A DNA stretch of 64,000 nucleotides from Candidatus Omnitrophota bacterium (GCA_028702395.1 JAQVOV010000001.1:3990-67989), one strand, 5' to 3'. Shown: positions 9,156 to 46,869, numbered from the stretch's first letter. Numbers and translations are program-made. The notes: a model not told the origin generated them from the sequence alone.

Positions 9156-9383
9156 ATGGTGAAAAAATATGTAAGCCCCACAATGAAAGCAGTCGAACTT
9201 GAACCAAAGCAAGCAATAATACAAGTTTGTGTAATTGGCGGAGTATATATGAGAAATGTTCCTCTTGCCCCTATTTGTTTTCCGGCAGGAACAGACATGA
9301 CAGGAATATGTTCTGTTTCAGTAAAAGGACAAGAAACAGGGAGCGTATCTCTTTCCCCTGTTGGTGAACTGCCAGGATCATAA
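9156..9383 (+). CDS. Small Cys-containing peptide, paralog P1 of a 7-member family (leader-peptide precursor-like)
   Basis: AAGGAG SD 8 nt upstream. N-terminus MVKKYVSPTMKAVELEPKQAIIQVCVIGG matches the family consensus. Two core Cys, VKGQ motif, C-terminus ...PGS. Confidence 0.5.
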   Translation: MVKKYVSPTMKAVELEPKQAIIQVCVIGGVYMRNVPLAPICFPAGTDMTGICSVSVKGQETGSVSLSPVGELPGS

Positions 9384-9398
9384 TCGGCAGTAGGGGCA

Positions 9399-9665
9399 AT
9401 GAATTGCCCCTACAAAAAAACAAAGGTAAAAATGCATAATTGTTCACAATGCCCTAAAAAACATTCTTGCGATAGCGAGTTAAACACAAAAGATACTTTA
9501 AAAGCTATCCTAAAAATTTTCATTATGCCTTTTTTTTTGTTTTTAATAGGTATTACCATAGGCGTTGCACTGTTCTCTAAAAACGAGTTTCGCTATTTAA
9601 TAGGGTTTATGTTAGGGTTTATGTTAATTGTTCTTAATTTTGTAGTTATAAGGCAACCGAAATGA
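9399..9665 (+). CDS. Small membrane protein with Cys-rich N-terminus (C-x10-C-x2-C-x4-C) and two TM helices
   Basis: Sequence features only. Resembles RseC-like small redox membrane proteins in architecture. Confidence 0.3.
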   Translation: MNCPYKKTKVKMHNCSQCPKKHSCDSELNTKDTLKAILKIFIMPFFLFLIGITIGVALFSKNEFRYLIGFMLGFMLIVLNFVVIRQPK

Positions 9666-9845
9666 GTATTGAGTAGTATGTCTGTGCGTCATGAGTATTG
9701 CGTCATGGGTAATGTGTCTGAGTGTCTTGTGTCCGCCTGCAGGCGAGACAGGTTTGCTGTGGAATTCTAAAATGTAGTTTTCCTCAAAAGACGCAGTACT
9801 CATTACACACTACTCATGACACACAGACACATTACCCATGACCCA
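9663..9845. repeat. Inverted-repeat element of GTCATGA/GTGTCT-type heptads in the ccdA 5' region
   Basis: Left arm gtcatgagtattgcgtcatgggtaatgtgtctg. Right arm cagacacattacccatgacccatgacac, ending 10 nt before GGAGG-ATG. Confidence 0.75.
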
Positions 9846-9865
9846 TGACACGTTTGGAGGTTAAC

Positions 9866-10552
9866 ATGACAGAGAATGTTTCTGTTTTCATGGCTTTTGG
9901 AGCAGGGCTTGTTTCTTTTTTTAGCCCGTGTGTTTTTCCTTTGATACCGGCCTTTTTATCGTATTTAACAGGCATCTCTTTTTCTAGCATTGAGAACATT
10001 TCTTTGGAAGAGAAAAAGGAAATAAGACGAAAAACAATAAACCATACCTTATGGTTTATTGGGGGATTTACAGTTGTTTTTGTTTTGCTTGGTCTAACTT
10101 CCAGTTTTGTAGGAAAATTCTTTTTACAATATCAAAAGGTATTCCTTAAGATGGGCGCGGTCTTAATAATTTTCTTAGGCCTGTTCGTTATGGGATTATT
10201 AAAAATACCTGCAATGGCTAAACATGCACAAATTGATTATCGCAAGAAAAGAATAAGCTATATTGGTTCCTGCTTAGTTGGAATGAGCTTTGCCTTTGCA
10301 TGGACCCCATGCGTAGGGCCTATTCTGGCTTCAGTTTTAATATATGCAAGTTCTGCTGCCAGCATGCAAAAAGGAGCTTTTCTTTTGGCTGTATTTTCAT
10401 TGGGAATGGGAATTCCTTTTTTAATAGCAGCAATTTTCATAAACTCTTTTTTGTTGATTTTTTCAAAAATAAAGAGGATAATAAAATATGTAAATATATT
10501 ATGCGGGATAGGGTTGGTTGTTTTTGGTATTTTAATATTAATAGGGAGGTAA
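9866..10552 (+). CDS. ccdA: Cytochrome c biogenesis/thiol-disulfide transporter CcdA (DsbD transmembrane domain family)
   Basis: SPCVFPLIP and WTPCVGPIL Cys motifs in TM1/TM4. GGAGG SD 5 nt upstream of the ATG at 9866. Confidence 0.75.
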   Translation: MTENVSVFMAFGAGLVSFFSPCVFPLIPAFLSYLTGISFSSIENISLEEKKEIRRKTINHTLWFIGGFTVVFVLLGLTSSFVGKFFLQYQKVFLKMGAVLIIFLGLFVMGLLKIPAMAKHAQIDYRKKRISYIGSCLVGMSFAFAWTPCVGPILASVLIYASSAASMQKGAFLLAVFSLGMGIPFLIAAIFINSFLLIFSKIKRIIKYVNILCGIGLVVFGILILIGR

Positions 10553-10555
10553 ATA

Positions 10556-11034
10556 TGAAAAAAATATGGGGGTTTTGTTTATTGTTCTTTTTTATAGTGA
10601 GCATGTGTACTGCATTATATGCTCAGCCTCAGCAGGCTCATGATTTTGTGATAAAAGATATTTCCGGAAATGATATCAAATTATCAGATCATAAAGGGAA
10701 AGTGATATTTCTTAACTTTTTTGCTACTTGGTGTCCTCCATGCAGAATGGAAATGCCTGATTTTAATGATATTGCAAAAGCCTATCCGGATGATGTAGCT
10801 GTAATTGCCATAAACGTTGATAATGAACCGGAATTAAATATCAGAGAGTTCGTTAATGAACAAGGACTTGTTTTTCCTGTATGTGTAGACACACAGGGAT
10901 TATCCCAATTATATGGACCTATACGTGCTATTCCTGTTACTATTGTGATAGACAAGGATTTTTTAATAGCAGAAAGATATGTTGGTGCAAGGTCAAGAGA
11001 TGTATTCGAGGAAGACATAAAAAGGTTGCAATAA
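10556..11034 (+). CDS. TlpA/ResA-like periplasmic thiol:disulfide oxidoreductase
   Basis: Signal peptide, WCPPC active site, thioredoxin fold. The longer upstream ORF in the track overlaps ccdA in another frame and is rejected. Confidence 0.75.
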
Positions 11035-11035
11035 A

Positions 11036-11668
11036 ATGAAAAAAATCATTTGCTTGATCCTGTGTTTTGTTTTTTATTGTACGATATGTTTTTCCGATGG
11101 GCTTAAAAAAGCACCTGGGTTTTCATTAAGGAAAGTTTCTTTTGGAGATACTTCTTCAGTATCTCTTGATGAGTATAAGCAAAATATCGTTCTATTGGTT
11201 TTTTTTGCAAGATGGAACATTCCTTCAGTTAATCAAATACCTGTTATAGAAGGTGTTGCGGATAGTTATCAGGAAGTTATTGCCTTAGGGATAAACTCAT
11301 CTTTAGATGCAGACAATAATTTAACCAGATTTGAAAATCAGATGAGTGCAAATTTCCCTTTCCTTGCTTCAGACGGAGTTGTTACTCAAAAGTATGGTGT
11401 TGGTCAAAATTTGCCTGTAGTTGTTCTTATAACAGCAGATAGCCAGGAAATATACAAGAAATATACAGGGCCGGTTTCTTATCAAAAGCTTAAACAAGAT
11501 ATAGATAAACTTTTAGCAGAAGAAAAAGCGAAAAGGGAGGAAGAAAAATTAAAAGAAAAGCTAAAAGAAACACAAGAAGATTCAAAAGAAACCAGTAATG
11601 AAACCAAGACAGAGCATGAAATTATCTATAATACCGTGCAAGACACAGAGGAAACGCAAAGCCCTTAA
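11036..11668 (+). CDS. Thioredoxin-fold lipoprotein-like protein lacking CxxC, with acidic/Lys-rich C-terminal tail
   Basis: TlpA-like fold positions but ARWNIPS replaces CxxC. Signal peptide with Cys. Confidence 0.4.
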   Translation: MKKIICLILCFVFYCTICFSDGLKKAPGFSLRKVSFGDTSSVSLDEYKQNIVLLVFFARWNIPSVNQIPVIEGVADSYQEVIALGINSSLDADNNLTRFENQMSANFPFLASDGVVTQKYGVGQNLPVVVLITADSQEIYKKYTGPVSYQKLKQDIDKLLAEEKAKREEEKLKEKLKETQEDSKETSNETKTEHEIIYNTVQDTEETQSP

Positions 11669-11681
11669 AAGATAGGAAATA

Positions 11682-12287
11682 ATGGTAATAACTAAACAAA
11701 AACAGATCGAAAAAATAAAGCAGTTTCTTAAGCCTAAAGAGAGAATTTTTATTATTGGATGCGGGGAATGTGCAACTGTTTGTGCTACTGGCGGAGAACC
11801 TGAAATTTTAAAAATGAAAAAGCTCTTAGAGCAAGAGGAGTTCAGCATAACAGGATTTGCAATTCCTGATGCTCCTTGTAATGCAGTACAAATAAGAAAG
11901 GTTTTAAGGGAAAACAAGCAAATATTGGCTGGTTCGGATTCTATACTTGTTCTTGCATGCGGATTAGGTGCACAATCTATAAAAGATAATATGGTACAGG
12001 ATCTTGCTATACATATCGGGTGTGATACTCTTGGGATGGGACAAACAGCCAAAAATAACGAGTTTCCTCAAACTTGTGTAGGATGTGGAGATTGCATTTT
12101 AGAACTCACAGATACTATATGTCCTGTGGCTAATTGTGCGAAAAGCTTGATGAATGGGCCTTGTGGAGGCCAAAATAAAGGTAAATGTGAAATAAACAAG
12201 GAAAAAGACTGTGCTTGGATCAAAATATATGAGTCTTTAAAAAAGAAAGATAGTGTATATTTATTAAAAGAAATACGATATTCTTAA
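11682..12287 (+). CDS. Cys-rich metal-binding protein (possibly MTHFR C-terminal-like/Fe-S domain), folate-neighbourhood
   Basis: Multiple CxxC/CGxC motifs. Lies upstream of a 5-formyl-THF cyclo-ligase gene. Confidence 0.3.
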   Translation: MVITKQKQIEKIKQFLKPKERIFIIGCGECATVCATGGEPEILKMKKLLEQEEFSITGFAIPDAPCNAVQIRKVLRENKQILAGSDSILVLACGLGAQSIKDNMVQDLAIHIGCDTLGMGQTAKNNEFPQTCVGCGDCILELTDTICPVANCAKSLMNGPCGGQNKGKCEINKEKDCAWIKIYESLKKKDSVYLLKEIRYS

Positions 12288-12425
12288 GGAAAAAGCAGAT
12301 CTGTTTAACTAGTTGTACTGGTTGCACTGGTTAAAGGAACCTTCCAAATATGGTTTAGAAAAAAGGGATGTTTTTAAAATAAAAGATAGCATAAATAGTC
12401 TTTTATAGTATAATAAATAGGAAAT

Positions 12426-12983
12426 ATGCAAATGCGTAAGCAAGAATTAAGAAAGGAGATTCTTGACAGGTTGAAAAAACAGCCTGAAGATTCTAAAATA
12501 ACTAAAGAAAATGCAATAAGAGACAAATTTTTATCTTCAGAAGAGTTTTTGAATAACCGTGTTATTATGTTCTATGTTTCAATGGCAGAAGAAGTTGATA
12601 CATGGACTATGATCAAAGAGGCTATAGACGCAGGTAAAACAGTAGCAGTTCCTTACAACCTGAAAGAAACTAATGATATGGTTCCTGTTAAGATAAGGGA
12701 CCTGAAAAAAGATCTGGAAAAGGGTAGCTATGGGATATATCAACCAAAAAACAAGGATGACAACAAAGTCCCTTTAAAAGATATTGAGCTTGTAATTGTT
12801 CCGGGAGTGGCTTTTGATACGAATAAGAATAGACTTGGCAGAGGAAAAGGATATTACGATAAATTCTTAAAAAAATTGCCTAAAAAAACAGTCACTATCG
12901 GATTATGTTTTGACTTTCAGATTGTAAAAAACCTGCCTGTAGATCATTTTGATCTGCCTGTTGATAAAATCATAACAAATTAA
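12426..12983 (+). CDS. 5-formyltetrahydrofolate cyclo-ligase
   Basis: Typical length. C-terminal GVAFD...RLGRGKGYYD motif. Confidence 0.8.
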   Translation: MQMRKQELRKEILDRLKKQPEDSKITKENAIRDKFLSSEEFLNNRVIMFYVSMAEEVDTWTMIKEAIDAGKTVAVPYNLKETNDMVPVKIRDLKKDLEKGSYGIYQPKNKDDNKVPLKDIELVIVPGVAFDTNKNRLGRGKGYYDKFLKKLPKKTVTIGLCFDFQIVKNLPVDHFDLPVDKIITN

Positions 12984-13028
12984 TACGGTTTTCATTTGTC
13001 TTTTAGTATGCTTAACGGAGGGATAATC

Positions 13029-14597
13029 ATGGAAACGATCAGTATCGCACATATCGGATTGGCCATAATAGGCGCATCGTTCTTTTTTGCTATAGGTTAT
13101 GTTTTAAGGAAATATACAGCAAAAGTGAAAATAAAAAAAGCAGAAGAAAGATCCAAACATATTGTTGAGGAAGCTCGTAAAGAAGCAGAAGCACGTAAAA
13201 GGGAATCTCAATTGGAAGCAAAAGATCTGCTTCTAAAGATGAGAACAGAATTTGAGAATGAGTCAAAAGGAAGAAAGCAAGAAGTTGCTATGATGGAAAA
13301 AAGACTTATTCAAAAGGAAGAGAATATTGATAGAAAAGTTGATCTTATAGATAAAAAGGAAAGGGATCTTGAGAACAGGAAAAAAGGTTTAGCAGAAAAG
13401 GAAAAGACTCTGACTGATAAAGAAAAAGAAATGGAAAGACTTCTTTTTGAGGAGAAGGAGAAACTGCAGAAAATTTCAGGGATGTCCAGAGATGAAGCCA
13501 GGCGAATTCTTTTACAAAGAATGGAAGAGGAAGTTAATAGGGAAGCAGCTGCTATGATACGCAAGACACAGGAAGAAGCAAAAGAAAAAGCAGATAAAGA
13601 AGCAAGAAAAATAATAGGGCTGGCAATTCAAAAATGTGCAGCTGATCACACGACTGAAACGACAGTAAGTGTTGTGAACCTTCCATCAGATGATATGAAA
13701 GGGCGTATTATCGGCAGAGAAGGAAGAAATATCAGGGCACTTGAAATGGCAACAGGAATAGATGTTATTATTGATGATACGCCTGAAGCAGTTATTCTTT
13801 CAGGATTTGATATGATGAGAAGAGAAGTTGCAAGAATTACACTGGAAAGACTTATTGAAGATGGAAGGATCCATCCCGGCAGGATCGAAGAGATCGCAGA
13901 AAAAGTAAAAGCTGAACTGGAACAAAGTATTAAAGATGAAGGGGAAAAAACCCTTTTTGATCTTGGGATACATGGCGTTCATCCTGAGCTTGTTAGGTTA
14001 GTGGGAAGATTGAAGTATAGAACAAGTTATGGGCAAAATATATTACAGCATTCAAAAGAAACTGCATGGCTAATGGGCACAATGGCAGGGGAATTAAGAT
14101 TAGATCCTGTTCTTGCAAAGAGAATGGGTATTTTGCATGATATAGGTAAAGCTGTAACGCATGAAATAGAAGGTCCTCATGCTAAACTTGGGGCAGACCT
14201 TGCAAAGAAATATAAAGAAAGTGAATCTGTTATACATGCTATAGAGGCACATCATAATGATATTGAACCGAAAACTCTTTTGGCAGTACTTGTACAAGCA
14301 GCAGATGCTATTAGCGCTACAAGGCCTGGAGCAAGAAGAGAGTCTTTAGAAACATATGTTAAAAGATTGGAAAAACTTGAAGGTATAGCTGATTCTTTTG
14401 CAGGAGTGGATAAATCATATGCTATACAGGCAGGAAGAGAAATACGTATAATTGTTTTTCCTGAGCAGATAGATGATGCGCATGCAACAGTGCTTGCCAG
14501 AGATATAAAGAAGAGCATAGAAGAAGGAATGGATTATCCTGGACAAATAAAAGTAACTGTTATTAGAGAAACTCGAGCGATCGAGTATGCAAAATAA
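13029..14597 (+). CDS. rny: Ribonuclease Y
   Basis: N-terminal TM, long coiled coil, KH domain (GRIIGREGRNIRALE), HD domain (HSKETA...HDIGK). GGAGGG SD before the ATG at 13029. Confidence 0.9.
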   Translation: METISIAHIGLAIIGASFFFAIGYVLRKYTAKVKIKKAEERSKHIVEEARKEAEARKRESQLEAKDLLLKMRTEFENESKGRKQEVAMMEKRLIQKEENIDRKVDLIDKKERDLENRKKGLAEKEKTLTDKEKEMERLLFEEKEKLQKISGMSRDEARRILLQRMEEEVNREAAAMIRKTQEEAKEKADKEARKIIGLAIQKCAADHTTETTVSVVNLPSDDMKGRIIGREGRNIRALEMATGIDVIIDDTPEAVILSGFDMMRREVARITLERLIEDGRIHPGRIEEIAEKVKAELEQSIKDEGEKTLFDLGIHGVHPELVRLVGRLKYRTSYGQNILQHSKETAWLMGTMAGELRLDPVLAKRMGILHDIGKAVTHEIEGPHAKLGADLAKKYKESESVIHAIEAHHNDIEPKTLLAVLVQAADAISATRPGARRESLETYVKRLEKLEGIADSFAGVDKSYAIQAGREIRIIVFPEQIDDAHATVLARDIKKSIEEGMDYPGQIKVTVIRETRAIEYAK

Positions 14598-14621
14598 CAG
14601 ATAAAAAGATAGTGTTTTGGT

Positions 14622-14657
14622 AAAAGCCCCTGATTAAGCTGGGGCTTTTATTTTTAT
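14622..14657 (+). terminator. Rho-independent terminator after rny
   Basis: aaaagcccc-tgattaagct-ggggctttt hairpin followed by a T-run. Confidence 0.7.
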
Positions 14658-14844
14658 TGCGAAAATAATGAAAAAATGATACATTGGATTGACTGTGATA
14701 GGGCTTTAAAGTAAAAAGTAAAAAGGTAAAAGGAAAAAGTGTGGAAGGTCCTAGACAGAGGTTTTTAATAAGATTCCACAATGACAACAGATTTTTTCCT
14801 TTTTACTTTTGCCTTTTTCCTTGAACACGGATAATGGGAGAATT

Positions 14845-15624
14845 ATGAAGATCTTAATGATAGGCGACATTGTCGGCAAACCAGGCAGAGATGCGATAAA
14901 GCATATGCTTTCAGGGTTAATTGAAAAAAGCAACATTGATTTTGTTGTTGCCAATGGCGAAAATGCTGCAGGTGGAAGCGGATTAACCCCTGTTATTTGC
15001 GATGAGCTTTTTTCATATGGAATAGATGTTTTAACTTCAGGGGATCATATTTGGAAAAAAAGAGATATATATGATTATATGGATATGTCTTCAAGTGTTT
15101 TAAGACCTTTGAATTATCCGGACAATAATCCAGGCAAAGGTTATACGGTAAAGCAAACTAAAAAAGGTGTTTCCGTAGGAGTAATCAATATTATCGGAAG
15201 GGTTTTTATGAACCCTGCAGATAATCCTTTTGAAAAAATATTAGAAGTCATTAAAGAATTAAGCGGATCAGTTAAAGTCATTGTTGTAGATTTTCATGCT
15301 GAAGCTACAAGCGAAAAAATTGCAATGGGATATTTTTTAGATGGTAAGGTTTCAGCAATAATTGGTACGCATACACATGTTCAAACCGCAGATGAAACTA
15401 TCCTGGAACAGCAAACCGCATATATTACAGATATTGGAATGACCGGGCCTTTCAGCGGAGTTATCGGACGCAATAAAAACGCTATTTTGGAGAGATTTAT
15501 CACTCAAATGCCTACGAGATTTGAAATGGCTGAAAATGATGTTCGTATAAACGGTGTTCTTATTGATGTAGATGAAAAAACAGGTAAAGCAAGAACAATA
15601 GAGAGAATAAATAAAAAATTATAG
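14845..15624 (+). CDS. ymdB: YmdB-like metallophosphoesterase (2',3'-cyclic nucleotide phosphodiesterase family)
   Basis: MKILMIGDIVGKPGR...GENAAGG...GDH motifs. Conserved rny-ymdB neighbourhood. Confidence 0.8.
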   Translation: MKILMIGDIVGKPGRDAIKHMLSGLIEKSNIDFVVANGENAAGGSGLTPVICDELFSYGIDVLTSGDHIWKKRDIYDYMDMSSSVLRPLNYPDNNPGKGYTVKQTKKGVSVGVINIIGRVFMNPADNPFEKILEVIKELSGSVKVIVVDFHAEATSEKIAMGYFLDGKVSAIIGTHTHVQTADETILEQQTAYITDIGMTGPFSGVIGRNKNAILERFITQMPTRFEMAENDVRINGVLIDVDEKTGKARTIERINKKL

Positions 15625-20212: not shown

Positions 20213-21502
20213 ATGAGTAATGTAAGAGTAAGATTCGCACCTTCGCCTACAGGGTTTTTACATTTAGGAAGTGCTAGAACAGCGCTTTTTAATTGGTTAT
20301 ATGCCAGACGTGTAGGAGGGACTTTTGTTTTAAGAATAGAGGATACTGATAATCAGCGTTCAAAAAAAGAGTTCCTTGATGAGATATTAAAAGATCTAAA
20401 ATGGATGGGACTTGATTGGGACGAAGGGCCTTTTTTTCAGTCAGAAAGAAGCAGCCTTTATATGCCGCATGCAGAAAAACTTTTAGAAAAAGGGCTTGCG
20501 TATAAAGATGGGGAAGCAATAATTTTCAAAGTAGCAGATGATCAGATCATAGAGGTCGAGGATCTTATACACGGAAAAATAATTTTCAATACAAAGGAGA
20601 TCAAAGATCAAGTTCTGATAAAATCAGACGGCTCTCCTGCTTATAATTTTTGTTGTGTTATTGATGACAATGATATGGGTATCACTCACATTGTACGAGG
20701 AGATGATCATTTGTCAAATACTCCAAAACAGATATTGTTCTATAAAGCCCTTGGATTCAATGTTCCTAAATTTGCACATATGCCTTTAATGATGGGAAAA
20801 GACGGCACAAAACTTTCCAAACGTCATGGAGGCGTGGCAGTTTTTGAATATAAACAGGAAGGTTTTTTGCCTGAAGCTTTAGCAAATTATCTTATGCTTT
20901 TAGGATGGATGCCAAAAGACGGAAAAGAGATACTCGCGCTAGATGAAGCTGTAAAACAATTTGATATCAGTGATATCAATAATGTGCAGGCAAAGTTTGA
21001 TGTAGATAAACTTAAATGGATAAATGGGGAGTATATACGACAAAAAAAAGCAGAAGAATTGAGAGCGCCTATTATGCAGAAAATGGAAGAAGAAGGGTAT
21101 AGAAAAGAAAATATTGACAAAGAGTATCTTTTAAGGATAATAGAGCTTTACAAGGAAAGGTTCAGGACTTTTTCAGAGTTTTTAACACTTACAACATGTT
21201 TCTTTAAAGATGATTATGTGATGGATGAAAAGGCTTTTCAGAAGAACCTTTCTAAAGAAGAATCGAAAAAGTGTTTGGCAGAATTTGCAAAAGCATTAAA
21301 AGAAGTTAAAGAATTCACTTCTAAAAATATAGAAGAGTGCTGTCGAGAGCTTTCCGAAAGAACAGAGATCAAAGCAGCACAATTTATTCATCCTACGAGA
21401 ACAGCTGTAAGTGGAATGCTAGGGGGAGCAGGGCTTTTTGAAATGATGGAGGTTTTAGGCAAAGACAAAGTTATCGCAAGGATGGAGAAGTGGAGTATTT
21501 AG
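20213..21502 (+). CDS. gltX: Glutamyl-tRNA synthetase (catalytic core; short C-terminus)
   Basis: HIGH-type motif (PSPTGFLHLGSARTA) and KMSKS-like (KLSKRHG). Confidence 0.85.
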   Translation: MSNVRVRFAPSPTGFLHLGSARTALFNWLYARRVGGTFVLRIEDTDNQRSKKEFLDEILKDLKWMGLDWDEGPFFQSERSSLYMPHAEKLLEKGLAYKDGEAIIFKVADDQIIEVEDLIHGKIIFNTKEIKDQVLIKSDGSPAYNFCCVIDDNDMGITHIVRGDDHLSNTPKQILFYKALGFNVPKFAHMPLMMGKDGTKLSKRHGGVAVFEYKQEGFLPEALANYLMLLGWMPKDGKEILALDEAVKQFDISDINNVQAKFDVDKLKWINGEYIRQKKAEELRAPIMQKMEEEGYRKENIDKEYLLRIIELYKERFRTFSEFLTLTTCFFKDDYVMDEKAFQKNLSKEESKKCLAEFAKALKEVKEFTSKNIEECCRELSERTEIKAAQFIHPTRTAVSGMLGGAGLFEMMEVLGKDKVIARMEKWSI

Positions 21503-21520
21503 AGAAGACGGATAGCACTC

Positions 21521-22045
21521 TTAAGATAAAAGAATAAAGATAAAAGATAAAAGGGTGGAATGTCCTGAGAGAAGTTTTGTAGGGGCGTATTGCAATACGC
21601 CCCTACTATCCAAAGTTTTCAGGAAGATCCTTAATCTCGTAGCCCGCTGCGCGTGGCGCGAAGCAGGTTTCCAATGAAGCTTTTGTAAATGAAAAAGACG
21701 TTCGAAGAAGAGAAAAGTATTTCAAGACAACTAAAGGAAAAAGAACGTTACGGTTAATGTTAAAAGAGACCTTAGAGAAGACGAATATCTCTCTCTTAAG
21801 ATAAAAGAATAAAGATAAAAGATAAAAGGGTGGAACGTCCCGAGAGAAGTTTTGTAGGGGCGTATTGCAATACGCCCCTACTATCCAAAGATTTCAGGAA
21901 GATCCTTAATCTCGTAGCCCGCTGCGCGTGGCGCGAAGCAGGTTTCCAATGAAGCTTTTGTAAATGAAAAAGACGTTCGAAGAAGAGAAAAGTATTTCAA
22001 GACAACTAAAGGAAAAAGAACGTTACGGTTAATGTTAAAAGAGAC
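21521..22045. repeat. Tandem duplication of a ~275-bp composite repeat unit (K-module + 30-bp palindrome + GC arm + ~100-bp tail)
   Basis: Two near-identical copies, 21521..21772 and 21797..22044, each containing gtaggggcgtattgcaatacgcccctac. Confidence 0.85.
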
Positions 22046-22149: not shown

Positions 22150-22223
22150 TGCCCGATGGTGTAATGGTAGCACAGGTGATTCTGGTTCATCTAGTCTAGG
22201 TTCGAGTCCTAGTTGGGCAACCA
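22150..22223 (+). tRNA. tRNA-Gln (anticodon CTG), ends CCA
   Basis: Acceptor stem TGCCCGA/TTGGGCA (one G-U). D-arm TGTAATGGTAGCACA. Anticodon stem GGTGA/TCATC with loop TTCTGGT. T-arm CTAGG-TTCGAGT-CCTAG. Discriminator A followed by CCA. Confidence 0.7.
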
Positions 22224-22382: not shown

Positions 22383-22631
22383 ATGACAAGAAAAAATAAA
22401 AAATATTTTAGACCTAAAGTGAAGTGTATACCATTATCTCAAGAGCAAGCTACTTTACAAGTCTGTCGTATTGGAGGAGCTTATTTTGGTTTTACAGATG
22501 CATTTCCAAGCTGGTGTTTTGGTGTTGGCACAACTCAACCAAGAGTATATGAGTGCGATGTAACGGTTAAAGGGCAATCTTTTGCTACTGATAGGGGGAA
22601 TCCAAATTCAGCGGATACGCAGCCTTCCTAA
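22383..22631 (+). CDS. Small Cys-containing peptide, paralog P2 (leader-peptide precursor-like)
   Basis: ...KVKCIPLSQEQATLQVCRIGGAYF... matches the family consensus. WC and EC core Cys, VTVKGQ motif, C-terminus ...QPS. Lies ~160 bp downstream of tRNA-Gln. Confidence 0.5.
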   Translation: MTRKNKKYFRPKVKCIPLSQEQATLQVCRIGGAYFGFTDAFPSWCFGVGTTQPRVYECDVTVKGQSFATDRGNPNSADTQPS

Positions 22632-39184: not shown

Positions 39185-39430
39185 CTAGCTTGGTGCTGCT
39201 GATTGAGCAAGATCTCCTCCAATCATCCTCATAGGGGAGTTACCCCCTGCTGCGCCTTTTGGAGTAAGTTGACATTCCATAGCAGGTGTTCCTGTTATAT
39301 TACCACAGAAGTTTACTCTCAGTGTTGTCTGATAGTATAAATATAGACCTCCAATTGCACAAATTGCTAAGATGGATTGTTCTGGGTGAAGTTGTATTGC
39401 TTTTATTTTCGGCTGTATATATTTTCTCAT
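39185..39430 (-). CDS. Small Cys-containing peptide, paralog P3 (leader-peptide precursor-like)
   Basis: MRKYIQPKIKAIQLHPEQSILAICAIGGLY... matches the family consensus. FC and EC core Cys, TPKG motif, C-terminus ...APS. Tandem with P4. Confidence 0.5.
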   Translation of the reverse strand: MRKYIQPKIKAIQLHPEQSILAICAIGGLYLYYQTTLRVNFCGNITGTPAMECQLTPKGAAGGNSPMRMIGGDLAQSAAPS

Positions 39431-39583
39431 TTTTCCTAACTTTCTAAATATTAAGTGTAGCATTTTTTACTTAGCAATGCAAGAAGAAAGGGATAATTTA
39501 AAAAGAAACTTATTAAGTATCATTATATTGTATAGAACCTTTTGATACTTGTCAATTAAAAATGAAATGTAATATAGAGGGGT

Positions 39584-39814
39584 TTAGCTTGGTGGCATGC
39601 TATTGGAGACAGACGTCATCATATCCATGTTTACATTTATTCCGTCTCCACCTTTTGGGGTAAAATTGCAAAGAGGACCATCTCCCGAAAACTGTCCACA
39701 CCAAGCAGAGATGGATCTGCTTACATACAAACCACCAACCTTACAAACTTGTAGAAGTGCTTGTTTTTGGTCAAGTTCAATAGAGTTTATTTTTGGCGCT
39801 GTGTATTGTTTCAT
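39584..39814 (-). CDS. Small Cys-containing peptide, paralog P4 (leader-peptide precursor-like)
   Basis: MKQYTAPKINSIELDQKQALLQVCKVGGLY... matches the family consensus. WC and LC core Cys, TPKG motif, C-terminus ...PPS. Confidence 0.5.
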   Translation of the reverse strand: MKQYTAPKINSIELDQKQALLQVCKVGGLYVSRSISAWCGQFSGDGPLCNFTPKGGDGINVNMDMMTSVSNSMPPS

Positions 39815-40150
39815 AAATAAAGTATATCAGGAGGCAAGTAAAAAGGCAAAAGGAAAAAGCAAAAAATAGTTTAACTAGTTGTTACTTGGCAAAGCGCATA
39901 TCGCGAATCGCATATCGTAAAGGGTGGGGATTTTTGCCACGAGCTGCGCGCTGCGCGCAACGCGCTAGTTGAACGTACTGAATAGGGATGAGATGCGTGT
40001 TAGAGACCAGAGACAAGAAGCAAGAGAACTATATATACGGCTTATCTTTAAATCAATTAATACTGGTCACTGGTCACTGGTCACTGGTCACTGGTCACTG
40101 GTCATTTGTTTCATATGGACTCATTGTTCCTGTTAAGCTATAATGAACCT

Positions 40151-40858
40151 ATGAACATGATATTACTTTTCCAAGAAGATTTTATTGAGCAGAACAAGGT
40201 TGTTCTTAATGACAGACGTCATAAACATATTATAGACATTCTTAGATCAAGTGTTGGACAAAAACTTTCTGTTGGATTATTGAACAATAAAATAGGGACA
40301 GGCGTTATTGTTAAGCAGACAAAAGCAGAAACAACTCTTGAAGTTATTTTAGAAAAACCTCCTGCTAAAAAATTGCCGTTAACACTCATTCTTTGCTTAT
40401 GTCGTCCTCCTGTTTTAAGACGTGTTATATATACTTGTACAATATTAGGGGTAGAAGAGCTCCATATAATAAATTCTTCCAGAGTAGAAAAAAGTTTTTG
40501 GCAATCTCATTCCTTAGAAAAACAGGAACTTGATAAAGAAATGTACCTTGGACTTGAACAATCTATAGATACTGTTTGTCCTTTAATAAATATTGAACAT
40601 TCATTCAATAAATTTACAGATGAAAAGCTAGCAAATATCATTAAAAACAAAAAAGCAATAATTGTTGATCCTGCAGCAAAAAAAACATGTCCATACAATG
40701 TTTCAGAAAGTGCTGTTATTGCAATAGGTCCTGAAGGAGGATTTCTTGTTCCTGAGGTAAAGGCATTTAAAAAACTTGGATTTAAAGATCGTAATCTTGG
40801 TTCAAGGATACAAAGAGTGGAAACCGTCATACCGTACGTAGTAGGTAGAATGTTTTGA
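40151..40858 (+). CDS. rsmE: 16S rRNA m3U1498 methyltransferase RsmE family
   Basis: C-terminal IGPEGGF...LG.RIQRVET motif. Start uncertain (40106/40151/40157). Confidence 0.7.
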   Translation: MNMILLFQEDFIEQNKVVLNDRRHKHIIDILRSSVGQKLSVGLLNNKIGTGVIVKQTKAETTLEVILEKPPAKKLPLTLILCLCRPPVLRRVIYTCTILGVEELHIINSSRVEKSFWQSHSLEKQELDKEMYLGLEQSIDTVCPLINIEHSFNKFTDEKLANIIKNKKAIIVDPAAKKTCPYNVSESAVIAIGPEGGFLVPEVKAFKKLGFKDRNLGSRIQRVETVIPYVVGRMF

Positions 40859-41323
40859 TCATTCTCCTAAAGAACCAAATATCAATGCTAAAAAGAAAAG
40901 AATTGCACCCAAAAGCAGAAAATACGCCTGGATAGTAAAACCAAACAGTACCATAACAATGAACACTAATAGCAAAAATAGAAAAGCGAAAAAAGCCTGT
41001 TTTCGTATGGCACGGGCAACTGCTGATTCTTCTTTTCTTATTTCGTGAAAAATTATCTTGGTTTTTTTCTTAGGAACAAAGGTTTCCAAATACAGGATAT
41101 CAGCTCTCACGCTATTGGCAAAATCAGCTTTATCATATAAACCCTCAGTTTTAAAGGCATTTCTATCTGTATTATCAAGAAAAGAGGAATGACGCAAAAA
41201 AGCCAATCTTTGGTCTTCAGGTAATTTTTCTGAGAACTCAAAATGGTTTAAACCTTTATGTTCAAGGTTTTCAAGCCATTTTTTCTGTTTATCGTTTAAT
41301 TTTGACACTTTTTTGGTGAACAT
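40859..41323 (-). CDS. Hypothetical protein with two C-terminal TM helices
   Basis: ORF only. Hydrophobic C-terminus. Confidence 0.3.
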   Translation of the reverse strand: MFTKKVSKLNDKQKKWLENLEHKGLNHFEFSEKLPEDQRLAFLRHSSFLDNTDRNAFKTEGLYDKADFANSVRADILYLETFVPKKKTKIIFHEIRKEESAVARAIRKQAFFAFLFLLLVFIVMVLFGFTIQAYFLLLGAILFFLALIFGSLGE

Positions 41324-41483
41324 AATAACTAACTATACATCCTTTTTTTGTTTGTGTCAAGACCTATGAGGATTGGTTAACGGATATGAAGAACCTTGCT
41401 GGTATATTTTTGGTACACTTGACTTTCCATGTCGGTGTGATACAATTCACACAAGCGATACAACAAATAAAGAAAAGGGTTAT

Positions 41484-41948
41484 ATGGATAATGCAAAAAA
41501 AGAATTGTTAGAAGAAGCTATACAGGTAGAGATAAACATGGCGAAACTGTATCTTTTTTTTAGGGATAATTTCACAAAAGATAAGGATTTTTGGGGTAAA
41601 ATAGCTGAAGAAGAGGCAGGACATGCAGCGCTACTAAATTTGGCGAAGGATTTTTTTGATAAATACCCAAAAAACATACTTTATGACAATATAAACGCTC
41701 TTAAAGCAGTAAATAAGAAAATAAAAAGTATTATAACAAACTATACAATAAAAAAACCTTCAGAAAAAGAAGCGTATGAACAGGCTTTTAGGCTGGAAAA
41801 CAGTGCATATGAACTGCATTATGAAAATCTTTTGGAAAGCAGCTCTAATGAAGAAGCTATCAAGACTTTTCAGAAATTGAACGAAGATGATAAGAACCAT
41901 GCTAACAGGATAAGGGAGTTGATCGATAAAAACAGTATAAACAGATAG
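41484..41948 (+). CDS. Ferritin-like/rubrerythrin-like helical protein (hypothetical)
   Basis: Ferritin-like diiron-type pairs E..H (EEEAGHAALL; ELHYENLLE). Start chosen at the internal ATG 41484. Confidence 0.4.
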   Translation: MDNAKKELLEEAIQVEINMAKLYLFFRDNFTKDKDFWGKIAEEEAGHAALLNLAKDFFDKYPKNILYDNINALKAVNKKIKSIITNYTIKKPSEKEAYEQAFRLENSAYELHYENLLESSSNEEAIKTFQKLNEDDKNHANRIRELIDKNSINR

Positions 41949-42040
41949 CTGAAGCGTTAAAATTCAGTTTATCTTGCATATTCTCGTCTAATGTGATATA
42001 ATTAATTAGTCAAAAAAGCATATAGATCATTGAAACTTTT

Positions 42041-42429
42041 GGGGGTGTCCGGAATCGACTTAGACATTACAGGCTTTAAGTTGCATGTAGCGGATGTCAG
42101 TTGGCCGCTTAAAATAACTGGCAAAAACACAAACGCAAAATACGATTCAGTAGCCGAAGCAGAAGCAATTCTAGCTGAGGATGCGTTACAAGTTCCTCAA
42201 TTTGAAGGAACTGGTTCTCTAGTAAGCGCTTTGGCTTATTAATAGGACTTAATCTAACAAAGACGATTAATAGTGTTGCTGTAGCATTGTTGATCGAAAG
42301 ATTACAGCTGCTTGTACATATATCCTGTTTGCCGGAGATATGTGCAAAAAGACAAATAACAAACTAAACATGTAGATACTTTTAGTTTGATGTCCGAGGA
42401 CCGGGGTTCGAGTCCCCGCACCTCCACCA
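42041..42429 (+). ncRNA. ssrA: tmRNA (ssrA), ~389 nt
   Basis: 5' GGGGGUGUCCGGAAUCGAC pairs with the 3' end ...CACCUCC-A-CCA, including the G3:U70 Ala identity pair. 3' T-arm GGACCGGGGUUCGAGUCCCCG matches tmRNA. Internal reading frame ends ...SALAY with double stop UAA-UAG (42240..42245). smpB is present at 3093. Confidence 0.85.
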
Positions 42430-42502
42430 TATTGCATTAAAAAGAGAAGCAAACGCTTCTCTCTTTTTGTTTATGATCATTTATCGAACAAACGGGGCGA
42501 AA

Positions 42503-42685
42503 AATATAATTTCCACAATACAAAAACGAGGTCTGTCCCTAGTTCTAGTTAAACTCAATAGTGGACAGACCTCGTTTTTATAGCTTGCCTCGGGACACAC
42601 ATAGGAGAGTAATTTAACCATTGGTTATGTGTGTCCCGAGAACTCTGGGTTACCTGAGAACCTGATCCTATAGAACCAGGTTCTC
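42503..42685 (+). repeat. Three-hairpin structured repeat, copy A (upstream of P5)
   Basis: Hairpins gaggtctgtcc...ggacagacctc, ctcgggacacacata...tatgtgtgtcccgag, gagaacctg...caggttctc. ~90% identical to the copy at 43594..43790. Confidence 0.8.
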
Positions 42686-42858
42686 CATAGCTAAAACAGA
42701 GGAAAAGCCACAAGGCAAAAAAGAAAAAGTGACAAATTTAAGACCTGAACCTATGGAACCAAGTTCTTGACACCATGGTGTCTGCCCAAAAGTTGCCCAT
42801 TTAAATTCAAAACAATAAAAAACTTGAGAGAGTGTGTAGTTTATGGTATATTTATTTT

Positions 42859-43065
42859 ATGAAAAAATATATTAAGCCAAGAATAAACGCCATAGACCTT
42901 GATCCTGATCAGGCGATCCTTGCGGTGTGTCAAGTTGCCGGCGCTTATTTTTTGTTTAATGGATGTTTTAGTTCTGGAACCGGTGTTGCATGTCCCTCGG
43001 AGATCAGAGGAGTTGCCAATCAAGTAGATGTTTTAGGCAGAACAAACGATGCTATCCCTTCATAA
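42859..43065 (+). CDS. Small Cys-containing peptide, paralog P5 (leader-peptide precursor-like)
   Basis: MKKYIKPRINAIDLDPDQAILAVCQVAGAYF... matches the family consensus. GC and AC core Cys, C-terminus ...IPS. The ATG at 42859 is preferred over the upstream GTG. Confidence 0.55.
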   Translation: MKKYIKPRINAIDLDPDQAILAVCQVAGAYFLFNGCFSSGTGVACPSEIRGVANQVDVLGRTNDAIPS

Positions 43066-43319
43066 TCAATCGCTTTATATACAGCATCTCTTGTAACACC
43101 GCCCATCCCTACAGTAACCTGTTTGAACCTTGGTTTTTGGAATCAAATTTTTTAGATTTTAAGAATATCGGACTAAGTTAATTCTCTGCCCATTTAAAGT
43201 CAAAATAGTTAAAATAAGGAAAAAAATTTCAAAACAGAATAAAACATAAACCTTTTTGTTTTATCACCATTTCATTTAACCAAATTTGCTTTTAAAAAAA
43301 GATATGATATACTTAAAGC

Positions 43320-43547
43320 ATGAAAAAATATCAAAGCATGAAAATAAAGAAAGTAAAGCTTAATTCTGACCAGGCAATAATGCAAGTGTGTGCTATCGCG
43401 GGTTCAGGATGGTACTTTAATCCAGGTCCTGTACAATGGTGCAATGCAGGTACAACTGATAATATTGGAGCATTCTGTACAAGTGGAGTAAAAGGAAATC
43501 AGACATATTCGAGAGGACCGGGTCAACAACATACAATACCAAGTTAA
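43320..43547 (+). CDS. Small Cys-containing peptide, paralog P6 (leader-peptide precursor-like)
   Basis: MKKYQSMKIKKVKLNSDQAIMQVCAIAGSGWYF... matches the family consensus. WC and FC core Cys, VKGNQ motif, C-terminus ...IPS. Confidence 0.55.
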   Translation: MKKYQSMKIKKVKLNSDQAIMQVCAIAGSGWYFNPGPVQWCNAGTTDNIGAFCTSGVKGNQTYSRGPGQQHTIPS

Positions 43548-43593
43548 ATTCTTTTAAGAAATTCTAAACTTCCAATTGCAGGCGAAAATCTTG

Positions 43594-43790
43594 AAATATA
43601 ATTTCCACAATACAAAAACGAGGTCTGTCCCTAGTTCTAGTTAAACTCAGCAGTGGATAGACCTCGTTTTATAGCTTGTCTCGGGACACACATAGGGGAG
43701 AATTTTAAACATTGGTTATGTGTGTCCCGAGAACTCTGGGTTACCTGAGAACCTGGTCCTATAGAACCAGGTTCTCAGGTTTTTTCTTTT
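43594..43790 (+). repeat. Three-hairpin structured repeat, copy B (between P6 and the radical SAM gene), ending in a terminator-like T-run
   Basis: Same three hairpins as copy A. Stem 1 carries a C-to-T change that keeps pairing only as a G-U wobble (RNA-level). Hairpin 3 is followed by ggttttttctttt. Confidence 0.8.
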
Positions 43791-43865
43791 CATGAAAAAC
43801 GCGAAAATAAAGAATTTATTGCAAAGGCTATACGTGCATGGTATAATCCAAAATAGAGGTGAACT

Positions 43866-45434
43866 ATGCTAATTGCATCAAAAAAACGACACAGAATGAG
43901 ACTTGTTATTCCTGCTTTTCCTGCATTTAATATTTATTCGTATTCGTCACAACGTACAACTGCACTTGGACCGGTTTGCATTGCTACAACAGTCAATCAA
44001 ATGGAAAACTGGGACGCTGAAGTCATTGATGAGAATAATCTTCGTTTATATGGACCTAAAAGTAAGACAGGTGGTGCAGACCATGAGTTTTTACACGTTA
44101 TCAGACCTGCTGATATTGTTGGATTTTATGGGGGATTGACAAGTACCATTCCCAGACTTTATGAACTTGCAAAGTTTTACAAGAAAAGAGGAGTTATTAC
44201 TATTGCAGGAGGACAACACTTTGTTGGTGAGAATATAAAAGAAGCTTTGTATTCTGATATTGATTATGTTGTTATAGGTGAAGGAGAGGAAACGATCAGA
44301 GAACTTATAGAAGGGTTAGAAGGAAAAAGAAACATAGATGAAATAAAAGGTATTGCGTACATAAAAAATGGAAACATTATTCAGACTCCAACAAGAGAAC
44401 CTATAACTGACTTTGAGAAATTACCTTTACCTGATTTTTCATTGGTCAGGTATGCTAGAATAGAAAATTATCCGGTTGAAAGAATAAGAGGATGCGGAAT
44501 GAACTGCGAGTTCTGTACTGTCAAAGGAAGTCCAAGATGTGCCTCTGTTGAAAGATTATTTGAGAGGATAAGTTTTTTGGTTGAAACAAGAGCAGCCAAA
44601 AGATTTTTCATCATAGATGATCTTTTTGGACAGCAAAGAGAAGAAACTATAAGGTTCTGTTATATGCTTCGTGATTATCAGAAAAGGATACACAAAAGAT
44701 TGGATGTGGGTGTTCAGATAAGATTAGATAAGGCTAAGGATACAGAGATGCTTTCTGCAATGCGCCAGGCAGGTATTAACTTTGTAGCTATTGGTTTTGA
44801 ATCTCCTATCAGGGAAGAGTTAAAAGCAATGAACAAACATCTGAACCCTGAAGAAATGATAGCACTCACAAGTATTTTTAGAAAATTCGGATTTCTTATA
44901 CATGGTATGTTCATTTTTGGATATCCTGTTCAAGAAGGGGTTAATTTCAAAATGCCTATAAAGGAACGTATTAAACAGTATAAGGATTTTATCAGAAAAT
45001 GTAAGATAGACACAATACAGATCCTGTTACCAGGGCCTTTGCCTGGTACTGAATTCAGAGAAAGACTTAAAAAGAAAAACAGGCTGTATCCTCTTAAAGA
45101 TATTGGCTGGGAATATTATGACGGAAGTTTTCCGCTTTTTGAACCTGACGAACCTTTGACTGCTGAAGAACTTCAAAAAGCACAAAAAGAGATCATGGGA
45201 AATTTTTACCAATTCAAATACATGTTCATGATAGCATTTAACATTTTCTCTTTTCCCTCAATAATATTTTTTTTAAATAACATCAAAGTTGGCTGGAGAC
45301 GGTGGTATAGACCATGGCGAAATGATCTTGTCCGTTTTGGTGGCTGGATGACTATGAGAAAATGGACAACAGAATTCAAGAAAAACACTTTTCAAGAGAA
45401 ATTGAACAAGGCCAAAGAGTGTATAAGGAAATAA
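43866..45434 (+). CDS. B12-binding (class B) radical SAM enzyme
   Basis: N-terminal cobalamin-binding Rossmann-like domain (...VGFYGG...ITIAGGQH...VVIGEGE). Radical SAM core with CGMNCEFC (CxxxCxxC). Hydrophobic C-terminal segment. Confidence 0.8.
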   Translation: MLIASKKRHRMRLVIPAFPAFNIYSYSSQRTTALGPVCIATTVNQMENWDAEVIDENNLRLYGPKSKTGGADHEFLHVIRPADIVGFYGGLTSTIPRLYELAKFYKKRGVITIAGGQHFVGENIKEALYSDIDYVVIGEGEETIRELIEGLEGKRNIDEIKGIAYIKNGNIIQTPTREPITDFEKLPLPDFSLVRYARIENYPVERIRGCGMNCEFCTVKGSPRCASVERLFERISFLVETRAAKRFFIIDDLFGQQREETIRFCYMLRDYQKRIHKRLDVGVQIRLDKAKDTEMLSAMRQAGINFVAIGFESPIREELKAMNKHLNPEEMIALTSIFRKFGFLIHGMFIFGYPVQEGVNFKMPIKERIKQYKDFIRKCKIDTIQILLPGPLPGTEFRERLKKKNRLYPLKDIGWEYYDGSFPLFEPDEPLTAEELQKAQKEIMGNFYQFKYMFMIAFNIFSFPSIIFFLNNIKVGWRRWYRPWRNDLVRFGGWMTMRKWTTEFKKNTFQEKLNKAKECIRK

Positions 45435-45579
45435 AATTCCTTATCTGCTAAAAAAATTTTATATATTATCCTCCCGTTAGAAGCCTTTGATTGACCATGA
45501 ATTGCTAATGTGCTACAATCCATTTATAAAACTATTTTGAAATCGACCAATACACTTATCTTTAAAAAAACGAGAGACT

Positions 45580-46515
45580 ATGACAAAAAAAATAATATTA
45601 TGCATTATCTTTAGTTTATATGCTGCCAATTGTTTTTCCATAGAATATGATGTGAATGAATTGTTAGGCTCCTTATATAAACAAGCCCAAACAGCTATAG
45701 AAAAAGGTGATCAAGGTGAGTCGGATTTCTTTTTAGCAAGGTACTTGGGATTAGTTACAACAGAAAATACCACTAAAAACTATACTGACCTTTATCCTTT
45801 ATTTGACACACATAAGCAGTTAAATGCTTTTACTGTTATTAACGGAGAATTCCAAAAAGAATTTATAGATTGGTTCATATTCGCAGGATATTCTATGTGG
45901 GCAGGACAAACTATTATACAAACAAAAGATGGCGCTTTAGAGGTTACCAATAATTTGAATGATAATTTCTATGTAGGGGTATTTGGGTATCCTTACTTGG
46001 AAAAAGGGAGTATTGTAGGAGGAACATCTAATAGCGGTGAAGTTGTTGTTATGACTTTAATGAGAAAACCTTTTTTAGTTTTAGGAAAGATCAAGGAGAA
46101 AGAGAATCCTTTGGATAATGCAAGCGATTTTCCAATAGAAGTAAGAACAGTCATACAATATATATGGCAGCCGGAATTCTATGATATTGATAAAGATGGG
46201 GAAGATGAAATTTTTATCAGATACAATAAATCTTGGGCTACAGGATTTTCGCAAGTATTGGATATTTATAAAATAAAAGAAGATGACTTGATCTTATGGG
46301 AGAGATTTGAGGGGTTAGCAGAAGGGATAGCTATGAGGGCAGGAGATAAAATTATTGTAGGAGAAGGTTTTTCTGATACAGGTAATGGCCATATGGGTTA
46401 TGAAAAAACACACATTGAAGAATTTGAATATAAAGAGGATAAATGGATAAGGACTAAAGCGTCTGATCAACCGCATATATTATTAAATGAAGAATGGAAA
46501 ACCTTTTATTTGTAG
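45580..46515 (+). CDS. Secreted hypothetical protein (signal peptide; no recognisable domain)
   Basis: MTKKIILCIIFSLYAANCFS signal. Lies between the rSAM gene and paralog P7. Confidence 0.4.
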   Translation: MTKKIILCIIFSLYAANCFSIEYDVNELLGSLYKQAQTAIEKGDQGESDFFLARYLGLVTTENTTKNYTDLYPLFDTHKQLNAFTVINGEFQKEFIDWFIFAGYSMWAGQTIIQTKDGALEVTNNLNDNFYVGVFGYPYLEKGSIVGGTSNSGEVVVMTLMRKPFLVLGKIKEKENPLDNASDFPIEVRTVIQYIWQPEFYDIDKDGEDEIFIRYNKSWATGFSQVLDIYKIKEDDLILWERFEGLAEGIAMRAGDKIIVGEGFSDTGNGHMGYEKTHIEEFEYKEDKWIRTKASDQPHILLNEEWKTFYL

Positions 46516-46647
46516 CTAAAAATTGTCTCTTTTTTATTCTTTTGACTATGGATAAAGGGATTCTAAGATTCCCAAAGATTTATTTTATAGATAAGAATGT
46601 TTTTTTACAAGTAGAAATTTTGTGAAAATAATATACAATATATACGT

Positions 46648-46869
46648 ATGAAAAAGTACATTATCCCAAAAATAAGAGCAATTAAACTTGATCAAAAACA
46701 AGCTGTATTAGAAGTTTGTCAACTTGCAGGAGCTTATTTTGTATCAGCAGGACCGCCTTCGGATTGGTGTATGCGTTCAGGTGCAGGCGTTAATTGCGTT
46801 ATAAGCGTAAAAGGCCAGGCAAACCCCGTAGAAATAGCTTGGACACAAAGAGGCGCTCAACCTTCATAA
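46648..46869 (+). CDS. Small Cys-containing peptide, paralog P7 (leader-peptide precursor-like)
   Basis: MKKYIIPKIRAIKLDQKQAVLEVCQLAGAYF... matches the family consensus. WC and NC core Cys, ISVKGQ motif, C-terminus ...QPS. Confidence 0.55.
   Translation: MKKYIIPKIRAIKLDQKQAVLEVCQLAGAYFVSAGPPSDWCMRSGAGVNCVISVKGQANPVEIAWTQRGAQPS

Follow-up and report, generated by a model that had tools for sequence, protein, structure and literature searches.

A stretch of 64,000 nucleotides from a Candidatus Omnitrophota bacterium (GCA_028702395.1, JAQVOV010000001.1:3990-67989), which we refer to in full as the window, contains between positions 9,156 and 46,869 seven short open reading frames (ORFs) that had been predicted, from the DNA alone, to form a dispersed family of paralogous peptides. 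We have analysed these genes, their relatives and their surroundings, and report that they belong to a large and uncatalogued family whose products we tentatively read as precursors of exported peptides. All seven ORFs are present where they had been placed; they encode 68 to 82 amino acids, alignable end to end, and are denoted P1 to P7 in the following (locus tags as in the source genome):

9156-9383, plus strand: P1, 75 amino acids, PHQ52_00080, preceded by the Shine-Dalgarno sequence AAGGAG
22383-22631, plus strand: P2, 82 amino acids, PHQ52_00155, 160 nt 3' of tRNA-Gln
39185-39430, minus strand: P3, 81 amino acids, PHQ52_00230, with a core of the 'TPKGAAGG' subtype, which is found in other metagenomes too
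39584-39814, minus strand: P4, 76 amino acids, PHQ52_00235
42859-43065, plus strand: P5, 68 amino acids, 430 nt 3' of the transfer-messenger RNA (tmRNA) gene
43320-43547, plus strand: P6, 75 amino acids, PHQ52_00265
46648-46869, plus strand: P7, 73 amino acids, PHQ52_00280

The reading frame of P3 is open to position 39463, the ATG at 39430 being favoured as start by the family alignment and by the NCBI gene call of 81 residues, and the GTG at 42832 upstream of P5 finds no support in the family. A hidden Markov model (HMM) built from the seven copies and run with all filters off against the six-frame translation of the window recovered exactly these seven, at E-values from 1e-27 to 2e-33; the next match reached only E=1.2, so that the family is well outside what chance would give and the window has no further copy. 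Eleven columns are invariant in the alignment of the seven (the initial methionine, a tyrosine, a leucine, a glutamine, three cysteines, three glycines and the terminal serine), in agreement with the shared N-terminal motif and terminal serine noted originally; P1 ends in PGS and the other six in PS.

Similarity among dispersed ORFs may reside in the DNA rather than in the protein, and we have thus compared the 27-codon conserved N-terminal module of the seven window copies, as mean pairwise values. Nucleotide identities at codon positions 1, 2 and 3 are 0.64, 0.76 and 0.47, respectively, 45% of the codon pairs that specify the same residue are written with different codons, and amino acid identity falls from 0.50 in the coding frame to 0.33 and 0.30 in the two remaining ones. 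The original prediction had named equal conservation of the three frames as evidence against itself, and this is not what is found: the highest in-frame identity together with the most variable third codon position indicates a true protein-coding family and not repeat DNA. At the DNA level the leaders of the window copies cross-match at only ~70–75%, and the core DNA of none of the seven has a second match elsewhere in the window. The view that these are no genes at all, but spurious ORFs within a dispersed DNA repeat or the variable region of a diversity-generating retroelement, could draw on the scattering of the copies through the intergenic space of a genome rich in short repeats. However, it is refuted by the codon-position comparison and by the lack in the window of any second copy of core DNA that could act as a template, and we consider its probability negligible: frame length and stop position are kept across hundreds of sequences, and the cores differ by insertions and deletions, which retroelement mutagenesis does not make. 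No reverse transcriptase occurs among the annotated genes of the window, not every ORF of which was scanned.

The window lies inside a 73.5-kb contig, and the family proteins encoded there are identical to hypothetical proteins of a metagenome-assembled genome (MAG) of 'Candidatus Omnitrophica bacterium' bearing PHQ52_ locus tags. That genome holds at least 27 paralogs on many contigs, namely 26 distinct locus tags retrieved by word-indexed searches plus P5, so that the expansion first described from seven copies is larger than had been thought. When 1.84 billion cluster representatives were searched exhaustively with HMMER, 321 proteins were returned at E≤1e-3, 172 of them at E≤1e-10, nearly all of 68–84 amino acids. 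Among 159 retrieved family sequences, 155 end in serine (116 of these in Pro-Ser) and 127 have exactly three cysteines. The named matches are all from Omnitrophica; the remainder is spread over a small number of metagenomes held by ENA, JGI and Logan. A scan of JGI metagenomes yielded only 4 loci. A degenerate leader pattern gave 16 matches in the GTDB species-representative genomes, all due to chance as judged by HMM, and the IMG/VR viral scan found no relatives, so that nothing points to a phage origin. Scans with Pfam, NCBIfam, PADLOC and PHROG models and a profile search of the PDB gave no match to the family, and in the literature on Omnitrophota in connection with ribosomally synthesized and post-translationally modified peptides (RiPPs), bacteriocins, precursor peptides or leaderless mRNAs we found no description of it.

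The organization of the peptide was derived from 157 sequences aligned on the invariant first cysteine. The N-terminal module comprises ~31 residues, is near-invariant, rich in lysine and carries a net charge of about +2.7; its consensus is M-K-K-Y(99%)-I-x-P(95)-K-I(86)-K-A-[VI](98)-x-L(98)-D-P-x-Q(98)-A(92)-[IV]-L(87)-Q-V-C(100)-x-[VI]-G(66)-G(90)-x-Y(75)-[FLM], where the cysteine close to the glycine pair, already pointed out in the original prediction, is present in every sequence. The variable part that follows has ~47 residues, of which 44% are glycine, serine, threonine or alanine, and is nearly neutral. Its first cysteine lies 7–14 residues past the conserved glycine; the spacing to the second, formerly given as 5–10 residues, is in fact 8–12 in the window copies, 8–14 in the consensus scaffold and 8–16 at its widest in the whole family; a [VP]-[KR]-G motif stands four residues past the second cysteine, and 22–26 more residues lead to the [P/G/A]-S end. 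Conservation is thus concentrated in the N-terminus and the extreme C-terminus and divergence in the core, as had been proposed.

None of these sequences has a hydrophobic segment of the general secretory (Sec), lipoprotein or pilin kind, the maximum 15-residue Kyte-Doolittle mean averaging 1.3, and export, if any, would accordingly require a dedicated route. A lipoprotein lipobox has the form [LVI][ASTVI][GAS]C and a Sec signal needs an uninterrupted hydrophobic h-region; both were rejected, as three to four charged residues (K, D, E) precede the cysteine and positions −1 and −2 are valine and glutamine. Type IV and Flp pilins have a short basic leader that ends in glycine and is followed by a hydrophobic helix of ~20 residues with glutamate at +5, and were likewise discarded, the glycine being followed here by x-Y-[FLM] and then by polar residues, with no hydrophobic segment. 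AlphaFold2, supplied with a 150-sequence alignment, returned a mean predicted local distance difference test (pLDDT) score of 57, with a helix at residues 16–26, a weak hairpin at 29–43 and a disordered tail; such a low-confidence model is typical of precursor peptides rather than of a globular domain.

The two parts of the gene have distinct histories. In a tandem pair at one further locus of the family (L003 in the list below), the DNA is 100% identical over a segment that starts ~45 nt before the ATG and reaches about codon 19, and unrelated beyond. Over 12,246 pairs, core identity is ~0.28 in every class of leader identity, against 0.21±0.05 for shuffled cores. This mosaic pair and the independence of core identity from the leader indicate that the promoter-leader unit and the core evolve separately. 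Some core subtypes, such as the TPKGG[AP]GG type, are shared by different metagenomes at core identities of up to 62%, and this retention argues that the cores are functional rather than products of drift; once formed, a core is maintained. Three of the five tandem genes in L003 are followed (~8620–8680, 9100–9170 and 10270–10340) by the conserved inverted repeat CGGGACAyACCTAAGAGTGGyATATAACTwGTGATTAGGTGTGTCCCG, probably a terminator or a unit resembling repetitive extragenic palindromic (REP) elements that was duplicated along with the genes. Two divergent Cys-rich peptides of 66 and 59 residues with SS ends are encoded at 10193–10393 and 10460–10639 of L022, between hflX and clpB; they share the VKLxPEQxVLSCC of a leader-like module, and their core is different, shorter and contains five cysteines.

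Expression signals were compared between 25 genes of the family, drawn from the window as well as from related loci, and 51 other genes of the window. A −10 hexamer ending 6–8 nt before the ATG occurs in 17 of the former and in 6 of the latter (Fisher p=1.2e-6); 12 of the 17 family boxes carry a TG extension and several have a consensus −35 element upstream. A Shine-Dalgarno sequence is present before 5/25 family genes and 28/51 controls, P1 and P3 being among the copies whose starts are of Shine-Dalgarno type rather than of the leaderless layout. Because the −10 box lies so close to the ATG, most copies are predicted to be self-contained transcription units giving leaderless mRNAs. In the window, the signals of this kind and the terminator that follows P6 are:

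39821-39849, minus strand: promoter-like site of P4, TTGCCT-17-TG-TATACT, ending 6 nt before the ATG (leaderless arrangement)
42824-42852, plus strand: promoter-like site of P5, TTGAGA-17-TG-TATATT, ending 6 nt before the ATG (leaderless arrangement)
43305-43313, plus strand: extended −10 box of P6, TGATATACT, ending 6 nt before the ATG
46634-46639, plus strand: −10 box of P7, TACAAT, 8 nt before the ATG
43743-43780, plus strand: terminator-like hairpin with a 15 bp stem and a T-run, between P6 and the gene of a B12-binding radical S-adenosylmethionine (SAM) enzyme

In several family genes the −35 and spacer region before the extended −10 box is filled by runs rich in GT or GC dinucleotides (for example GTGTGTGTAGTGTGTG and GCGCGCGCGC), located at 42780–42850 of the window, ~9450–9490 of L020, ~190–225 of L025 and ~4470–4500 of L027; these simple-sequence tracts could modulate promoter strength.

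The copies are dispersed among housekeeping genes. The description of the window as a housekeeping region is accurate, since it contains gltX, tRNA-Gln, the glycine cleavage system, lipoate genes, RNase Y, dxs, xseA, tmRNA and 6S RNA, and its RNA genes are listed here together with the seven further loci at which family genes were inspected:

6277-6435 of the window: 6S RNA
22150-22223 of the window: tRNA-Gln(CTG), with P2 just 3'
42041-42429 of the window: tmRNA, whose tag end is read by ARAGORN as ALAY, with P5 just 3'
L003: five family genes in tandem, adjoining serS
L020: family genes between leuA and aroE
L022: family genes between miaA and hflX
L025: family genes among flavodoxin genes
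L027: family genes around a DEAD helicase
L030: family genes past the rplQ end of the ribosomal operon
L031: family genes near pheST

The neighbouring genes differ at every locus and none recurs. At the examined loci no gene next to any copy encodes an ATP-binding cassette (ABC) or C39 protein, a RiPP recognition element (RRE), a LanM-like or lanthipeptide enzyme or a SPASM protein, and no C39-ABC transporter is found in the 64-kb window or within ±10 kb in L003, L020, L030 and L031. A few candidates for functional neighbours, each seen at one or two loci, were set aside as coincidental: the DsbD/thioredoxin genes by P1, PilD near the L020 copies and the PilB-like ATPase after P7, as well as the adjacency to PMT_2 glycosyltransferases, to tRNA or to tmRNA.

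The family is real, uncatalogued and strongly expanded, and has unusual expression and evolutionary features, in a phylum of which little is known. As to what it produces, the reading we lean towards, with somewhat less than even confidence, is that of precursors of exported peptides processed in trans, analogous to prochlorosins or class II microcins but outside those families. It is suggested by the combination of an invariant charged module, a hypervariable core on a fixed scaffold, unlinked paralogs, mosaic evolution and the absence of a stable fold. The seven genes would then be part of a lineage-specific multigene family of ~75-residue precursors, each usually in a small transcription unit of its own under a strong and often extended −10 promoter. 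The N-terminal module, laid out as a Y-x-x-P-x-I strand, a D-P-capped helix QAILQVC and then G-G-x-Y, would serve for recognition or export as a leader that a single machinery, encoded at another place in the genome, reads in trans for all copies, much as one ProcM acts on the products of dispersed procA genes and one exporter handles class II microcins; cleavage would take this leader off close to the conserved glycine, and the variable module would be the exported product, its two cysteines closing a ring by a disulfide or a thioether. Diversification would proceed by duplication and recombination that keep the promoter and leader and either swap the core or let it diverge anew. The occurrence of a similar leader-like module on another type of core in L022 is consistent with such a scheme. 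A number of observations weigh against it: the 'GG' breaks the canonical double-glycine rules and no leader model matches; leaders do not usually contain an invariant cysteine, nor does conservation usually extend past the putative cleavage site; a small, folded and uncleaved protein would also account for a tail of fixed length and a conserved C-terminus; neither an exporter, a protease, an RRE protein or a modifying enzyme conserved near the copies nor any immunity-like partner gene was found in the window and the seven further loci; and the trans-acting machinery is purely postulated, the partner search having covered this same set. The absence of immunity-like partners argues specifically against a bacteriocin role.

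By analogy, prochlorosins of marine cyanobacteria would be the closest functional counterpart, and class II microcins the closest in peptide chemistry. Prochlorosin precursors have Nif11-type leaders and hypervariable cores containing Cys, Ser and Thr, and their genes are scattered away from the enzyme gene; they share with the Omnitrophota family the many dispersed precursor genes, the conserved leader with a hypervariable core and the independence of the two. In contrast, the leader is here of ~28–31 residues with an invariant cysteine and without Nif11 or NHLP homology (no Pfam or NCBIfam match), and the core is longer (~47 residues), keeps a constant scaffold of two cysteines and has a conserved serine at its C-terminus; we know of no LanM or other enzyme for this family. 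Lasso-peptide leaders, which are RRE-bound and contain YxxPxL, resemble the near-invariant Y-x-x-P-x-[IL] (Y 99%, P 95%, I 86%; I or V 93%), and P6 gives a faint, sub-threshold match to a burhizin leader model (E=0.13). However, there is no Thr at −2, no core of 15–25 residues with an acidic residue at positions 7–9, and no B or C maturation gene at any locus, and the likeness is a lead only. Conotoxin superfamilies offer an evolutionary analogy, with their conserved N-terminal pro- or targeting region, hypervariable mature part, Cys framework and large repertoire, but are eukaryotic, Sec-dependent and unrelated in sequence.

The closeness to class II microcins and double-glycine bacteriocins raises the question of whether the genes are simply canonical members of that class, cleaved and exported by a C39-peptidase ABC transporter, as the original prediction implied. 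Both are small, Gly/Ser-rich and free of Sec signals, with leaders ending in Gly-Gly and one potential disulfide; the leader of ~28 residues ending in x-[VI]-G-G and the Gly-rich core recall the microcin V-type peptides, whose Gly-rich core has one disulfide, and the terminal serine recalls class IIb microcins, in which the C-terminal serine carries a modification. In canonical double-glycine leaders glycine is essentially invariant at −2, with G, A or S at −1, in an LSxxELxxIxGG-type register. Here the reverse is observed, glycine reaching 90% at −1 (four residues past the leader cysteine) and only 66% at −2 (three past it; A 11%, S 8%, then D or N), the hydrophobic positions are −3, −6, −8, −9 and −15 instead of −4, −7 and −12 with an acidic −8, and conservation runs three residues past the 'GG'. 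In addition, scans with the leader and bacteriocin models of Pfam and NCBIfam gave no match at E≤1 to 5, no peptidase-containing ABC transporter, accessory or immunity gene stands beside any of more than 30 copies examined, the copy number is far higher, and 27 unlinked toxins in one genome without linked immunity genes are implausible. C39 domains are present in Omnitrophota (bioRxiv 10.1101/2023.11.21.568195), which speaks in favour of this class, but with glycine pattern, hydrophobic register, leader models and neighbours all in disagreement we regard the assignment as decidedly unlikely. What stands of the earlier interpretation is the diversified secreted or modified peptide, still the best explanation available, with export being a property that we infer; its bacteriocin mechanism is unsupported.

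The main rival to the precursor reading is different in kind and, although rather unlikely in our estimate, the more serious one: the products may be uncleaved small proteins acting inside the cell or at the envelope, where the N-terminal module would be the working part, a strand-helix for partner binding or oligomerisation, possibly with a redox- or metal-active cysteine, and the tail a tolerant appendage of constrained length that tunes specificity. Conservation through and beyond the 'GG', the odd number of near-invariant cysteines (three, one of which is in the N-terminal module), the constant distance of 22–26 residues from the second core cysteine to the C-terminus, the lack of export or processing genes nearby, the dispersal among housekeeping operons with strong, constitutive-looking promoters and the position of P1 beside a CcdA/DsbD-thioredoxin cluster would all suit it. 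On the other hand, a Gly/Ser/Thr-rich, uncharged and hypervariable composition with at least 27 paralogs is unusual for intracellular regulators, a deep alignment gave no confident AlphaFold2 fold, mosaic evolution of leader and core is typical of exported polymorphic peptides, and the neighbour genes change from locus to locus. A further alternative takes the arrangement around P5–P7 at face value, as a RiPP cluster (P5, P6, radical SAM gene, 311-residue protein, P7) in which the B12-binding radical SAM enzyme encoded next to them (43866–45434) would act on the peptides: P5 and P6 lie just upstream of this class-B gene and P7 just downstream, and the enzyme has weak, sub-threshold matches to RiPP C-methyltransferases, such as TIGR03975 with 61 bits against a cutoff of 282. 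Yet its gene belongs to the core set of the whole phylum (2449 homologs at E≤1e-30, the best ~70% identical), the surroundings of its orthologs in two other Omnitrophota contigs are free of family genes to a distance of 10 kb, no radical SAM gene is near the copies in L003, L020, L030 and L031, a strong terminator and a separate promoter intervene between P6 and the enzyme gene, and at least 20 paralogs are located elsewhere in the genome. The adjacency is hence incidental as far as core-gene status, unlinked orthologs, terminator and own promoter can tell; the cis-linkage is largely refuted, and we consider this alternative very improbable. The enzyme itself has no NCBIfam equivalog (its best match is HpnJ, with 98 bits against a cutoff of 578) and is conserved at the level of the phylum, its named best-scoring homologs being Omnitrophota MAGs. 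The 311-residue protein (45580–46515) begins with a signal-like sequence, and Pfam, NCBIfam, PADLOC and PHROGs gave no match for it.

Returning to precursors processed in trans, a more far-reaching version, which we hold to be unlikely in its entirety, would make this a new class of ribosomal peptides in Omnitrophota: a Cys-containing, 31-residue leader read in trans by an unrecognised maturation or export system would give at least 27 hypervariable, ring-closed peptides per cell, produced from leaderless mRNAs and diversified by leader-anchored recombination, which could serve nano-sized, probably host-dependent or predatory bacteria in their interaction with other cells. The family occupies ~1.5% of the genes of one uncultured Omnitrophica genome, taking the highest locus tag seen (08355) and assuming that tags step by 5, and a conserved leader with a hypervariable core is the signature of exported, fast-diversifying peptides such as prochlorosins, microcins and conotoxins. 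As Omnitrophota are ultra-small and suspected to be host-dependent or predatory, the repertoire could be one of their principal means of contact with other microbes, as well as a source of new peptide chemistry; were the products intracellular, they would still represent a large, unexplained expansion of small proteins. The genes also provide a clean natural set of leaderless genes with consensus promoters in a phylum whose expression signals are unstudied.

Other features of the window were noted in the course of this analysis. A repeat element consisting of the head ATCAATTWAT and perfect heptamer arrays, (CTGGTCA)n or (CTAGTCA)n, of up to 18.6 copies occurs six times, against 0 expected:

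1270-1366: heptamer repeat element
6475-6499, minus strand: heptamer repeat element
31209-31233, minus strand: heptamer repeat element
36594-36713: heptamer repeat element
38911-39051: heptamer repeat element
40052-40104: heptamer repeat element

A GNAT gene and an IS110-family transposase (36757–38533) lie between the two longest of the CTAGTCA arrays, and such arrays resemble the short tandemly repeated repetitive (STRR) heptamers of cyanobacteria. Between gltX and tRNA-Gln (21499–22045) a 275-bp unit is repeated twice, with 97% identity, and includes the palindrome GTAGGGGC...GCCCCTAC; palindromes of this type are found also after P1 (~9390–9415) and, in L030, upstream of a family gene. The gene of the glycine-cleavage P-protein subunit 1 (31312–32648) is split into ORFs at 31312–31974 and 32058–32648, the second frame being open upstream to at least 31881, which places a frameshift within the 31881–31974 overlap, where there is a T7 run; the frameshift is either genuine or due to an error of the assembly. 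Finally, a dense signalling cluster at 47615–58003 comprises six receiver-domain genes, a histidine kinase, a multi-PAS histidine kinase of 1339 residues and a PilB/GspE-type ATPase (50047–52200) that has an MshEN domain at its N-terminus and a receiver domain at its C-terminus.

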